Positions 1 through 3,996 of a stretch of 64,000 nt of DNA are shown piece by piece. The DNA lies in sequence record ON184125. The stretch is one strand, 5' to 3'. Origin of the DNA: Escherichia phage PC3. Under the pieces are notes generated by a model that made no database searches, was not told the DNA's origin, and was given only the letters and a program-made list of their open reading frames with translations. The number at the start of each line of letters is the position of its first letter. Within the stretch, counting starts at the first letter, position 1. The position numbers and the translations under genes were made by a program.

Positions 1-188
1 ACCGGACGATTACTGTTGCTGCCGAGAAGGTTGAGGTCACCGAAGAGATGGTGGCGACCGATGCGGTGGAAGTCCTGAAGAAGGATATCCGCGCCGGGAA
101 CAACATTCAGCGCCCCGACAACGTCTGTAAACTGGCAGAGCACTTCTATAATGCTGCCCAACAACGCCTGAACAAACTGGATGCATAA
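1..188 (+). CDS. 3' end of an upstream CDS (5' end outside window); possibly the Mre11/SbcD-like partner of the following gene
   Basis: Open frame from window edge to TAA at 186-188 (...AQQRLNKLDA*); function guessed only from its position directly upstream of the Rad50-like gene (T4 47-46 synteny). Confidence 0.35.
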   Translation, partial: RTITVAAEKVEVTEEMVATDAVEVLKKDIRAGNNIQRPDNVCKLAEHFYNAAQQRLNKLDA

Positions 189-2526
189 CATGACTCAGAG
201 CACAGATATCTTGACCAAATTTGGTAATCTTTTGAAGGAAGCCGACGCCCCGGTCGAGGTTGAAGTCCCATTTGAAGTGCGTAACGTTGTTACACACAAA
301 CTGACCTTCCGCAAAGGCCGCGCCAAGAACTTCCGCTCCATCGGCAATCAGTTCATGGAGATTGATTATCAGCGCAACCCGGCCACCCTTGTCACGTCTG
401 ATGACAACGGCGCGGGTAAATCCACGATGCTGGTATGGCTGCTGTTTTTCGTACTGTACAACGACACATACAGCAAGAAGGAGAAGAAGGCAGGCCTGGT
501 TAACTCACAGAGCCGCAAGGAATGTGTGGGTGAGGTGGAGTTTGCCTGCCGTGGTAGCGAATGGAAGGTTCGCCGGGGTATCAAGCCCGACTTTGTTGAA
601 GTCTACCAGATGGTGGACGGCAAGTGGTTGCAGATCGATAACGAAGCAGCCAAAGCCGACATGAACAAGTACATCGTGAACCTCATCGGTGTAGACCAGA
701 AGATGTTTGAGAACTCTCTGGTGTTAGGTAAAGAGAAGTTCATTCCGTTCACGGAGATGTACACAGCCGACCGCCGCGCCATGGTGGAGACTATCTGGGA
801 CTTGGGCTTCTTCAGCCTGATGAACGAAGATGTCAAGGCCGCCATCAAAAGGACAAATGCAACTCTGGACTCTATATCTAACGAATGCGCACTGAAGGTT
901 GTTGACCACACCAACAAGAAGACGCAGCTTCAGCAGATCGAGCAATCCAACGCCCTGATCCAACAGCAGTCGGCCGATATCCTTGTACAGCAACAGGAAG
1001 CCCTGAATTCCCTGGATGCTGACATTGCCGCGCAGAATGAGGAGCGCACCCGCCTCACGGCTGTGGAGTTTGAAGCCACCCAGGAAATGAAGACGGTGGA
1101 AAGCCGCCTGCATGATGAATCCATGGTAGAGATCGAGGCTGTCAAGAAAGACTTTGATGCCAAGATCCAGGCGGTGAAGGATGCCGCGCAGGACAAGGCT
1201 GACGATTATGAGCGCATCGAAGTGTCTACTGCGGAGCATGATCTTCAGGTCTTGCGTGACCGCGCCTTTACAGTGGCCGAACGCAAGAACACCCTGCTCA
1301 CCGAGCGCAACACAAACCTGGACACCCTGAACGCTGCTATTCAGCGCCGCCAGCAGGGTGAGAACTTCCGTATCAAGTTCCAGACTGAAATGGAGGGGCA
1401 TCAGTCGGCCATCAAGCGCTTCCACGACATGGGGACTTGCCCAACATGTACCCAACTGGTGTCCGACGATACCAAGGCGCGCATTGAAAGCGAGTACAAT
1501 CCTCGGATTCAGGATCTACAGGCGAAGCTGGACCAGCTGGATAAAGTCACCGCCGAAGTCACTGTGTTGATCGATGACCACAAAGCCCAGGACGACAAGC
1601 TGGTTGCTGACATTGCTGTGTTGGATGCTGAACTGGATGCAATGCGCAAGCAGGCCGACGAAATCGTTGACAACATCAAGCAGCTGCGCCGTGATATTCA
1701 AGGTTTTCATGATGCTGCCACGATTGAGTGTAATTCGCTGAACCGTGAATGCCAACAGAAGATCCTTGACATCCGTAAGGCACTGAACGTTCGTTTTGAA
1801 GACATCACTGCTTCGCTGCAACAGACGCGAGAGAACGCCGTCAGCGGGATTAAAGCCGTCGATGATAAGATCGCCGAGCTGAAAGCCCGTCGTGCTCCTC
1901 TCGTGGCGTCTATTGCCGATCTAGAGCGTAAACTGGCTGTACAGTCAACACCTACCACCGACCTAGAGAACTCTATCGCTGCGTTGGAGGGTGAACTGGA
2001 GGATCTATACCAGCGCCGCGAGGATGCCGACCAGGAACTCCAGGACTTACAACACCTGCTGTTCTTCTTGAAAGATGACCAGACCAAGGCGCGTATCATC
2101 GCCCTGTATCTGCCATTCCTCAATAGCAAGATCAACGAGTATCTTGAAGCCCTCAACATGTTCTTGGACATCGTTGTTGACGATACCTTTGAGATCACCA
2201 TGAGCGCAGCAGGCCGCAAAGGACAGAGTATCTTCTCCCTGTCTACTGGTCAGCGCAGTCGTCTGAACCTGGCTGTGACATTAGCTCTGCGCGATGTGGC
2301 TAACCTCAAGGCGTCTGTACAATGTAACCTGTTCGTGTTGGACGAGATCCTTGAGAACATGAGCGAGCGCGGGGTGCAGGAATCTGTTGAGATGTTGAAG
2401 CATAAGTTCGGTGGGAACAACCTGTTTGTCATCAGTCAGCGTGAGCAGGAGTTCCAGGAATACTTCCAACACAACATTCGCTACGGTCTGCGAAACGGCC
2501 TGACTGAAGTTATCAAGAAGGATTGA
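181..2526 (+). CDS. Rad50/SbcC-like recombination ATPase (T4 gp46-like)
   Basis: 781 aa; N-terminal Walker A (DDNGAGKST), long central coiled-coil-like region, C-terminal ABC signature/Walker B-like segment (LSTGQRSRLNLAV...FVLDEILE); start may be ATG 181 or ATG 190. Confidence 0.85.
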   Translation: MHNMTQSTDILTKFGNLLKEADAPVEVEVPFEVRNVVTHKLTFRKGRAKNFRSIGNQFMEIDYQRNPATLVTSDDNGAGKSTMLVWLLFFVLYNDTYSKKEKKAGLVNSQSRKECVGEVEFACRGSEWKVRRGIKPDFVEVYQMVDGKWLQIDNEAAKADMNKYIVNLIGVDQKMFENSLVLGKEKFIPFTEMYTADRRAMVETIWDLGFFSLMNEDVKAAIKRTNATLDSISNECALKVVDHTNKKTQLQQIEQSNALIQQQSADILVQQQEALNSLDADIAAQNEERTRLTAVEFEATQEMKTVESRLHDESMVEIEAVKKDFDAKIQAVKDAAQDKADDYERIEVSTAEHDLQVLRDRAFTVAERKNTLLTERNTNLDTLNAAIQRRQQGENFRIKFQTEMEGHQSAIKRFHDMGTCPTCTQLVSDDTKARIESEYNPRIQDLQAKLDQLDKVTAEVTVLIDDHKAQDDKLVADIAVLDAELDAMRKQADEIVDNIKQLRRDIQGFHDAATIECNSLNRECQQKILDIRKALNVRFEDITASLQQTRENAVSGIKAVDDKIAELKARRAPLVASIADLERKLAVQSTPTTDLENSIAALEGELEDLYQRREDADQELQDLQHLLFFLKDDQTKARIIALYLPFLNSKINEYLEALNMFLDIVVDDTFEITMSAAGRKGQSIFSLSTGQRSRLNLAVTLALRDVANLKASVQCNLFVLDEILENMSERGVQESVEMLKHKFGGNNLFVISQREQEFQEYFQHNIRYGLRNGLTEVIKKD

Positions 2527-2528
2527 TC

Positions 2529-2693
2529 ATGAACTACGAACAAATTAAACTCGCAATCCTGGTCTTTGCATGCATCATTGACATCGTTTCGTTTTCTCGT
2601 GAAGTCGAAAGGAAAAACTACCTGAAAGCACTGGGGTATCTCGGGTTCTCTGTCTGGTTCTGTTATCTACTTGCAGGTCAGATCCTGAAATGA
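2529..2693 (+). CDS. small hydrophobic protein (54 aa), below ORF-track cutoff
   Basis: ATG 2 nt after gp46 stop; MNYEQIKLAILVFACIIDIVSF...FSVWFCYLLAGQILK; stop overlaps ATG of next gene (ATGA), suggesting translational coupling. Confidence 0.4.
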   Translation: MNYEQIKLAILVFACIIDIVSFSREVERKNYLKALGYLGFSVWFCYLLAGQILK

Positions 2694-3019
2694 AAGTCGT
2701 CCACTTCAAGAAGGAGCCATATGACGTCTACATTGGTCGGCCTGGTAAATGGGGGAACCCGTTTGAGGTCAAAGACCATGGACGAAGCGTCTGTATCGAA
2801 CTGTTTGAGGACGACCTGTATGTGCGCCTGATTGAAGGGGATATCACTGAGGATGAACTCCTTGATCTTGACGGGAAGGTATTGGGGTGCTGGTGTAAGC
2901 CGCGCCCCTGCCACGGAGATGTTTACGTCAAAGTCGTCGGGCGTATTAAACTATTCCGCAAGCTGGGTAAATCCTTTACTGAACATCTGAGACAAACGTA
3001 TGTCAGAAAACAAAGATGA
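2690..3019 (+). CDS. DUF4326-like protein with conserved Cys/His motif
   Basis: 109 aa; YIGRPGKWGNPF ... GCWCKPRPCHGD motif that I recognise as characteristic of the DUF4326 family; function unknown. Confidence 0.6.
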   Translation: MKVVHFKKEPYDVYIGRPGKWGNPFEVKDHGRSVCIELFEDDLYVRLIEGDITEDELLDLDGKVLGCWCKPRPCHGDVYVKVVGRIKLFRKLGKSFTEHLRQTYVRKQR

Positions 3020-3284
3020 AATTCAGGAATCCTGTGACATTGCTGTGGAGATATGGAATCGCAGGAATCCTCATTACCAAGTGACCGTCACTCCGAATCG
3101 TTATCTTGAGCAGGGTGGTCTGATTGTGGTTGATGCTGTACTCGCTTTCAACAAGTACCAAGATATGCAGATCCTGGACGGCAACTTTACCGTCGCGACC
3201 AAGACGGCATGGGATGACCCTCTACAGTTTGTCTATGGCTGGCTGGAGTGTATCGAGGAATCCTACCACCTCATCTACGAATGA
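3000..3284 (+). CDS. hypothetical protein
   Basis: 94 aa ORF overlapping end of previous gene by 20 nt; no recognisable motif. Confidence 0.5.
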   Translation: MSENKDEIQESCDIAVEIWNRRNPHYQVTVTPNRYLEQGGLIVVDAVLAFNKYQDMQILDGNFTVATKTAWDDPLQFVYGWLECIEESYHLIYE

Positions 3285-3381: not shown

Positions 3382-3996
3382 ATGACGATGACAACGTTGA
3401 AGGCCATGGCCTTGTCCGTGACCTTTACCATTGCCAGCGGGAATGTGCACGCTTCCCAAAGTACCACCCAATGTGATTATAATTTCTCCGAGCAACAACT
3501 TAATACGATGGCAACCGCCTATCACGTAGGCAAGACACAAGATCTTGGCTACACTCTGGCCGCCATATCTTGGCGTGAGAGCCGCGCTGGCGAAGATGTA
3601 GTGTCAATGCGATACGGCCTCAAGGCGGCCAACATGGGAGCCTTTCAGAACAAGGTGAAGACAGTTGGTGATCGCGAAGGTTGTAAGAATCGCAAGTGCT
3701 ATGCCAATGTCGCTATAAAGTTGCTGACCGACCAAGAATATGCCGCGCAAGCCGCCCTCGATGAGATGCAGTTCTGGCTGACCTATCACAATCAGAATAT
3801 CCGCAAATCCCTCTCCTCTTACAATGCTGGCTTCGCCCGTAATCCTGCATCGAACGCTTATGCTGCCGACGTCGTGAAGAAAGCTAAATATCTTCAGAAA
3901 TGTGTGTCCTTCGAAGGCCGGACCATCTCCGAGGTAGATCCTCAGGTGATCGCCATGAACAAGCACACAATAGAGAAACTGAAGAGGACAAGATAA
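3382..3996 (+). CDS. secreted lytic transglycosylase-like protein (SLT-domain-like) with signal peptide
   Basis: 204 aa; N-terminal signal-peptide-like segment (MTMTTLKAMALSVTFTIASGNVHA); SWRESRAG (catalytic Glu-Ser-like), MGAFQ, SYNAG motifs reminiscent of lytic transglycosylases; preceded by hairpin and AGGAAC...ATCATG initiation region. Confidence 0.55.
   Translation: MTMTTLKAMALSVTFTIASGNVHASQSTTQCDYNFSEQQLNTMATAYHVGKTQDLGYTLAAISWRESRAGEDVVSMRYGLKAANMGAFQNKVKTVGDREGCKNRKCYANVAIKLLTDQEYAAQAALDEMQFWLTYHNQNIRKSLSSYNAGFARNPASNAYAADVVKKAKYLQKCVSFEGRTISEVDPQVIAMNKHTIEKLKRTR

Follow-up and report, generated by a model that had tools for sequence, protein, structure and literature searches.

Do the two small overlapping genes that follow the gp46-like recombination gene of Escherichia phage PC3 form one functional unit, or is each to be understood on its own? 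The window analysed here is a stretch of 64,000 nucleotides (nt) of record ON184125, read 5' to 3' on one strand, and the locus in question lies at its positions 2529-3019, where an open reading frame (ORF) of 54 amino acids (aa) runs into one of 109 aa. A sequence-only reading had described the second ORF as a DUF4326-like Cys/His protein, coupled to an unannotated small hydrophobic peptide and next to a Rad50-like gene; the sequence details given there, namely the coordinates, the 2-nt gap after the gp46 stop, the overlap of ATG and stop and the two motifs, were all correct. The answer that we consider probable is that a DUF4326 protein, possibly an enzyme, and an independent, exchangeable membrane-hairpin cassette stand side by side at this locus, both of them already catalogued. 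Over its first 6 kb, the window is 100% identical to positions 64001-70000 of Escherichia phage PH4 (ON184126.1; Ackermannviridae, Aglimvirinae), and the window copies of both genes are labelled PH4 in the comparisons with relatives.

Identity and conservation of the DUF4326 gene

The two genes and their parts, together with the basis of each assignment, are as follows.

2517-2521, plus strand: AAGGA, a plausible Shine-Dalgarno sequence for the 54-aa ORF, 7 nt ahead of ATG 2529 (read from the sequence)
2529-2693, plus strand: 54-aa ORF, two-helix membrane hairpin, phrog_34593 (coding sequence (CDS) PH4_000071 in GenBank)
2690-2693, plus strand: ATGA start/stop overlap of the 54-aa ORF with the DUF4326 gene (sequence)
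2690-3019, plus strand: DUF4326 / T4 NrdA.1-family protein, 109 aa (PF14216, phrog_464, AlphaFold2 (AF2) model)
2729-2764, plus strand: N-terminal motif YIGRPGKWGNPF with R17 and N23 (residue conservation)
2885-2920, plus strand: motif GCWCKPRPCHGD with C67, the C69...C74 loop and H75 (residue conservation, predicted secondary structure)
2942-3016, plus strand: basic C-terminal helical extension, residues 85-109 (alignment, helices, charge calculation)

ORF 2690-3019 encodes a stand-alone member of DUF4326, the T4 NrdA.1 family. In a Pfam hidden Markov model (HMM) search, the check that the sequence-only reading had proposed for its family assignment, the 109-aa product scored 83.3 bits with PF14216, the cutoff being 25 (E = 1.9e-23; residues 3-79 aligned to profile positions 3-80 of 82), which bore the assignment out, and it matched phrog_464 with E = 1e-45. 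Both family signatures, G-R-x(3)-W-G-N-P-[FY] and G-C-W-C-x-P-x(2)-C-H-G-D, are present in the product. When 1.84 billion cluster representatives were searched with a profile, 24,205 family members came up at E <= 1e-3, and relatives were found by tblastn in 2,167 of 50,697 phage records (about 4%), including those of T4-type phages, where the gene is nrdA.1. The NrdA.1 locus of the T4-like phage wV7 showed 42% identity to the 109-aa product (tblastn), and the wV7 NrdA.1 protein itself matches PF14216 (E = 5.5e-22). No NCBIfam or PADLOC model matches either the 109-aa or the 54-aa protein.

Among the representatives taken from a 50%-identity library, N23, C67, C69, C74 and H75 were each conserved in 148 of 148 sequences, R17 in 147 and R32 in 144, and G22, P24 and P71 were likewise near-invariant. 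Purifying selection on the gene is strong within the Ackermannviridae, the ratios of nonsynonymous to synonymous substitution rates (dN/dS) being 0.03-0.11 at synonymous divergences (dS) of up to 0.77; the close pair PH4 and Ag3 gave 0.21. Residues 85-109, which lie outside the Pfam domain and are found in Ackermannviridae members, carry a net charge of +8 versus -4 for the core, suggesting a nucleic-acid substrate for these members.

The product is a small cytoplasmic alpha/beta protein. Its AF2 model, built with 48 homologues, reached a predicted local distance difference test score (pLDDT) of 95.8 and consists of a strand (2-5), helices (27-30, 32-49 and 54-58), a second strand (64-67) and two further helices (75-91 and 96-108); C67 is thereby predicted at the end of strand 64-67, followed by the loop 68-74, and H75 opens helix 75-91. 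In a Foldseek search of BFVD, the best match was the DUF4326 protein of Serratia phage 3M (E = 1.8e-13, template modelling score 0.91), and the named proteins among the 31 viral matches at E <= 1e-3 were almost all DUF4326. The structure prediction that the sequence-only reading had called for thus supplied a confident fold shared by viral DUF4326 proteins; it gave no significant match to a solved structure, rhodanese, Cdc25 and PTP domains included, and the profile of the 48 homologues found nothing under E = 0.08 among PDB sequences.

A real gene for a membrane hairpin

ORF 2529-2693, whose ATG lies 2 nt past the gp46 stop and whose product is MNYEQIKLAILVFACIIDIVSFSREVERKNYLKALGYLGFSVWFCYLLAGQILK, is a real gene, because it has a full-length phrog_34593 match (E = 1e-39, residues 1-54 on profile positions 1-54), evolves under purifying selection (dN/dS 0.14-0.28 in informative comparisons, with exactly 54 codons kept even in divergent alleles) and yields a helical-hairpin model. 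The divergent allele of phage heyday also matches phrog_34593 (E = 1.4e-13). Hydropathy shows two hydrophobic segments flanking the charged loop SREVERKNYLK, and AF2 predicts a hairpin of helices 3-27 and 31-53 (pLDDT 87). The ORF is not the unannotated one that had been supposed: it is already CDS PH4_000071 in ON184126.1 and has been on record as a membrane protein in Shigella phage Ag3 since 2009, where it reads 'hypothetical membrane protein, two transmembrane domains'; several other relatives carry it as 'putative membrane protein'. The family is restricted to Ackermannviridae, where it occurs in 37 of about 278 related phage records, and 5.8 billion proteins yielded 5 clusters of it; PHROGs, Pfam, NCBIfam and PADLOC assign it no function. 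The combination of a missing DUF4326 match and an unconserved small ORF, which the sequence-only reading had named as telling against itself, was therefore not what we found.

The variable slot between gp46 and DUF4326

Among related genomes, the stretch between gp46 and DUF4326 is occupied in various ways, among them the following.

gp46, 54-aa ORF, DUF4326: PH4, Ag3 and SKML-39
gp46, 102-aa ORF (phrog_4651), 54-aa ORF, DUF4326: Kamild, heyday and BPS6
gp46, 102-aa ORF, DUF4326, with no hairpin ORF: Chennai (Kuttervirus)
gp46 directly followed by DUF4326, the slot being empty: Klebsiella phage cp18 (Taipeivirus)
gp46, phrog_4165 homologue, DUF4326: Erwinia phage Bue1

The hairpin ORFs themselves fall into at least four types.

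Type A: 54 aa, phrog_34593, 37 records
Type B: 53 aa, phrog_35473, labelled 'holin', 9 records (Maynard, Marshall, Mansal, EP75, MK-13)
Type C: 51-53 aa, 11 records (relatives of Klebsiella phage 0507-KN2-1, Serratia phage IME250)
Type D: 57 aa, 40 records (P46FS4, ChubbyThor, Det7, Se-J and others)

In shuffle tests, types B and C showed no similarity, and types A and D resembled each other only marginally (z = 3.4); the type C ORF has two hydrophobic segments and no PHROG match. DUF4326 keeps about 90-95% identity while the adjoining peptide is swapped for unrelated sequences. For instance, nucleotide identity between PH4 and Kamild was 91% at the end of gp46 and 90.6% in DUF4326, with 54.5% in the small ORF between them. 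The reverse pattern was seen with type B, which is 99.4% identical (1 difference in 162 nt) between Maynard (Kuttervirus, L029 901-1062) and MK-13 (Agtrevirus, L026 956-1117), while DUF4326 and gp46 on either side of it agree to only 86% and 78%, respectively; therefore, this single cassette was recently transferred between subfamilies. This contrast in identity is direct evidence of the type B transfer, whose breakpoints lie at the gene boundaries (TCATGA ... ATGAAAGT). The hairpin peptide is thus an interchangeable accessory cassette and not a fixed partner of DUF4326, and the 54-aa ORF of PH4 may be one allele of a fast-turnover cassette that is horizontally exchanged among these phages. 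The recurrence of hairpin ORFs at exactly this site is the sole mildly surprising feature of the locus.

Three public records deserve a remark in this context. In 0507-KN2-1 (AB797215.1, L003 1343-1504), a type C ORF is unannotated; it takes up the 154-nt 'gap' that separates gp46 from NrdA.1 and ends in an ATGA overlap. OR844944.1 ('Enterococcus phage Efm 3-10', 38.5 kb) contains Ackermannviridae sequence with a 94% identical small ORF, and MN871475.1 ('Pseudomonas phage Pa-sanjiao') contains Ackermannviridae sequence with a type D ORF, in both cases of the kind usual for Salmonella/Escherichia phages; the host labels of these last two look wrong, or the records look like contaminant assemblies.

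Coupling of the two genes and truncation of DUF4326

The word 'coupled' in the sequence-only reading was borne out in part. The 4-nt overlap of start and stop is there, and translational coupling is likely because no evident Shine-Dalgarno sequence lies upstream of the DUF4326 ATG; ribosomes that translate the 54-aa ORF probably prime DUF4326 translation by way of the ATGA, but the peptide is not an obligate functional partner. What did not hold is a conserved pairing, which is lacking among relatives. The same ATGA junction stands ahead of DUF4326 whichever ORF precedes it. The junction that corresponds to the AAGGA site reads AAGGAGTGATCATG in cp18, where it runs straight into DUF4326, and AAGGATTGATCATG in Kamild, where it runs into the 102-aa ORF. 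Overlaps are also common in the genome, with three ATGA overlaps and further ones within 18 kb of PH4. Because the junction is kept regardless of the neighbour and overlaps are frequent, the overlap indicates generic translational coupling, not a dedicated pair. The survey of DUF4326 gene contexts that had been suggested along with the coupling went against a fixed pairing as well, in that the DUF4326 genes of other phage families (T4-like, Thalassavirus, Lahexavirus, Abidjanvirus, N4-like and Gordonia phages) had no small membrane neighbour.

DUF4326 itself can be truncated. In Dickeya phage LIMEstone1 (L015 2528-2800), a deletion has left the opening codons of the 102-aa slot gene joined to a point midway through DUF4326. 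The remnant, annotated as ORF088, covers profile positions 32-80 only, the YIGRPGKWGNPF region being gone. The identical deletion junction was observed in 16 of 19 Dickeya phage records, which thus lack the slot genes together with the N-terminus of DUF4326. Since the N-terminal motif is deleted in these, at least one lineage can do without DUF4326; the gene is, in short, useful yet dispensable.

Surrounding genes

The two genes lie at the 3' end of the gp47-gp46 string of recombination-nuclease genes, and their neighbours on either side are the following.

181-2526, plus strand: gp46-like SbcC/Rad50-type recombination nuclease subunit (phrog_77 E = 1.8e-162, Pfam SMC_N E = 1.5e-10)
3000-3284, plus strand: 94-aa gene downstream of DUF4326, phrog_4165, function unassigned (phrog_4165 E = 5.6e-50)

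The upstream neighbour, named gp46 in relatives and ending in TGA at 2524-2526, was rightly called Rad50-like, as its profile matches show. The phrog_4165 gene overlaps the 3' end of the DUF4326 gene by 20 nt; in Erwinia phage Bue1 (L004 1193-1510), its homologue lies upstream of DUF4326, indicating that gene order has been rearranged between genera. Between these genes there is no sigma-70-like promoter, no convincing terminator and no late promoter of T4 type. A terminator-like match at 2631-2644 is a 5-bp stem within the 54-aa ORF and was dismissed as chance.

Further downstream, GenBank CDS PH4_000074 starts at 3508 (3508-3996, 162 aa), and an ATG at 3382 would give 204 aa. The 204-aa ORF 3382-3996 has a signal-peptide-like N-terminus (MTMTTLKAMALSVTFTIASGNVHA) and agrees with the 205-aa annotation in Chennai, 0507-KN2-1 and heyday, so the start was probably mis-called in the PH4 annotation. 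This ORF belongs to phrog_600 and has a sub-threshold match to the Pfam SLT lytic-transglycosylase family (E = 3.9e-4); the labels of its homologues in relatives vary between 'RegB' and 'murein transglycosylase'.

What the two proteins may do

In a published prediction (Burroughs, Iyer and Aravind; PMC9503650, PMC7824862), DUF4326 is a Cys enzyme acting on ribose-linked phosphates of NAD (nicotinamide adenine dinucleotide)/ADP-ribose derivatives or DNA ends. Applied to the window copy, the R17/N23 loop, R32 and the C67-x-C69-x4-C74-H75 loop would form a pocket binding a ribose-linked phosphate, in which a cysteine thiolate would act as the nucleophile. Candidate substrates are nucleotides, NAD/ADP-ribose derivatives and DNA ends, and the protein may serve replication or nucleotide metabolism, or undo ADP-ribose-based interference by the host. 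This model, inferred from the published prediction, is in our view the likeliest mechanism for DUF4326, although we hold it tentatively and at clearly less than an even chance.

The domain partners and neighbours of DUF4326 were also collected. SLOG/DprA-like domains are fused to DUF4326 in P0285 and P0287, tandem DUF4326 repeats are found as well, and some of the proteins matched in BFVD bear the names DUF2493 and 'NADAR domain with protein tyrosine phosphatase'. In Sphingobium phage Lacusarx, polA (L023 2908-5382) has an N-terminal DUF4326 domain (PF14216 E = 5.3e-18) followed by exonuclease and polymerase domains, so that here the family is joined directly to a replicative enzyme. The gene is found in the order frd-td-nrdA.2-nrdA.1-nrdA-nrdB in T4-type phages, in a ribonucleotide reductase (RNR)-HNH-Dam-thioredoxin neighbourhood in Aeromonas phage LAh_6, near an exonuclease in PaMx11, near a primase with endonuclease VII in Gordonia phage BetterKatz and beside gp47/gp46 in the window; these neighbourhoods fit DNA or nucleotide metabolism. 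Burroughs and Aravind reportedly defined a RapZ-C/DUF488/DUF4326 clade in 2023. Of 48 DUF4326 members, 12 matched PF22751 (the active DUF488-N3 subclade) below threshold, with a best E of 0.0056 and always with the C-terminal half on the C-terminal half.

As for the 54-aa peptide, it may be an inner-membrane helical hairpin that acts in host-envelope or phage-phage interaction, for example in superinfection exclusion; we attach low confidence to such a role. A role of this kind has been proposed for small membrane ORFs of T4-type genomes, which Comeau et al. reportedly described in hyperplastic regions in 2007.

Alternative explanations

Several points weigh against the reading of a Cys enzyme with an independent hairpin cassette. 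In the literature searched, no experimental characterisation or enzymatic activity of any DUF4326 protein was found. Alignment of DUF4326 by hhalign gave no match to E. coli YeaO alone and a probability of 0.3 against a 16-sequence alignment of the YeaO clade (DUF488), which is shallow, the homologue search having given close YeaO relatives only, and represents a clade without the Cys motif, which makes this a weak test. C67, C69, C74 and H75 lie within nine residues and are present in 148 of 148 sequences; the role offered for the peptide comes by analogy only; and at least 97 of about 278 Ackermannviridae records have a hairpin ORF directly ahead of the DUF4326 gene, pointing to a possible functional link. 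The clustered Cys and His residues would suit a non-enzymatic protein, in which they form a zinc-binding Cys3-His module for nucleic acid or for a protein of replication or nucleotide metabolism. The loop differs in length by one residue in BetterKatz (CWCPLDQPCH), which a metal site could tolerate, the tail is basic, and the fold searches brought no significant match with rhodaneses or Cys-phosphatases; however, R17, N23 and R32 are conserved polar residues too and resemble a substrate pocket, repeated fusions to enzymatic domains that process nucleotides or ADP-ribose suggest an enzymatic step, and a metal site and catalysis are not mutually exclusive. On balance a purely zinc-binding protein seems to us somewhat unlikely. 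A minimal NADAR-like N-glycosidase that takes ADP-ribose off bases is scarcely credible, as DUF4326 has no sequence, profile or fold match to NADAR (PF08719) above noise.

The recurrence of the hairpins raises the question of whether hairpin and DUF4326 are a functional two-gene module, either for membrane recruitment or regulation or as a toxin/antidote-like pair, with ATGA enforcing their co-expression. The overlap is present, the hairpin ORF is always directly 5' of DUF4326 where it is seen, even beside the 102-aa ORF, and four or more sequence types of like size and topology occupy the exact site in at least 97 records. Nevertheless, the Chennai-type Kuttervirus and cp18-type Taipeivirus phages keep an intact, conserved DUF4326 without any hairpin ORF, DUF4326 in other phage families has no such neighbour, ATGA overlaps are generic in this genome, and the steady 90-95% identity of DUF4326 despite peptide swaps speaks against co-evolution, so that we judge a module unlikely. 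A related and slightly more doubtful idea is that the site 5' of DUF4326 is an arms-race locus, at which rapidly diversifying, horizontally exchanged peptides of 51-57 aa (types A/A', B, C and D) would share a function with DUF4326, as reflected in their recurrent placement and translational coupling. If so, a membrane sensor or exclusion peptide would work with or gate a DUF4326 enzyme in superinfection or host defence, and that enzyme would act on ADP-ribose/NAD-derived signals or DNA ends. Finally, the two transmembrane helices and holin-like size of the peptide (hydropathy, AF2), the 'holin' label of its positional analogue type B (phrog_35473) in Maynard, Marshall, EP75 and MK-13, and the SLT-like gene with its signal-like N-terminus about 690 nt downstream (E = 3.9e-4) could be taken to mean that the 54-aa ORF encodes a class II-type holin, perhaps acting with the protein of 3382-3996. 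But the ORF is missing in most relatives, as a sole holin could not be, it is part of the gp47-gp46 string of replication/recombination genes, near which no late-promoter consensus of T4 type lies, its C-terminus (...AGQILK) is without the charged tail typical of holins, phrog_34593 carries no assigned function, and the Maynard announcement gives no evidence behind the label. A holin role is unlikely, and we give this version of it very little weight. The reading of a DUF4326 protein next to an independent, exchangeable hairpin cassette is the one that we retain.

Significance and comparison with known systems

Each of the two genes has its place in a catalogued family and carries an annotation in public records, and in this respect the locus is ordinary and already known. 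DUF4326 is nevertheless among the larger uncharacterised viral families, and its predicted link of NAD/ADP-ribose biology to DNA replication makes its biochemistry worth solving. What the window copy adds is the Dickeya deletions showing dispensability, the basic tail of the Ackermannviridae members and the residue set R17, N23, R32, C67, C69, C74 and H75, an invariant set that offers obvious targets for mutagenesis. The hairpin slot is an example of cassette exchange at gene-boundary microhomology and could be a convenient system for studying tiny phage membrane proteins.

As regards the rhodanese-phosphatase superfamily, the predicted layout of DUF4326 would fit a Cys-loop active site, with a conserved Cys closing a strand ahead of a loop and then a helix, and conserved Arg residues are present. 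It differs in that its loop is without the CX5R arginine, in that the searches brought no significant match to solved members, and in its three invariant Cys residues and a His, which go beyond the need of a single-nucleophile site. The 54-aa peptide resembles the phrog_35473 'holin' and the membrane ORFs of T4-type plastic regions in being tiny, with two transmembrane segments, patchy in distribution, divergent and exchanged at fixed genome positions, whereas nothing in the libraries searched links it by similarity to a characterised holin or exclusion protein. The 109-aa protein corresponds to Pfam DUF4326, T4 NrdA.1 and phrog_464 in the full-length domain, both motifs, the predicted fold and a neighbourhood of DNA or nucleotide metabolism. 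Two differences stand out: the window protein has the basic, helical C-terminal extension of 25 residues that Ackermannviridae members carry, and its gene follows gp46/gp47, whereas the T4-type copy resides inside the nrd/td cluster.

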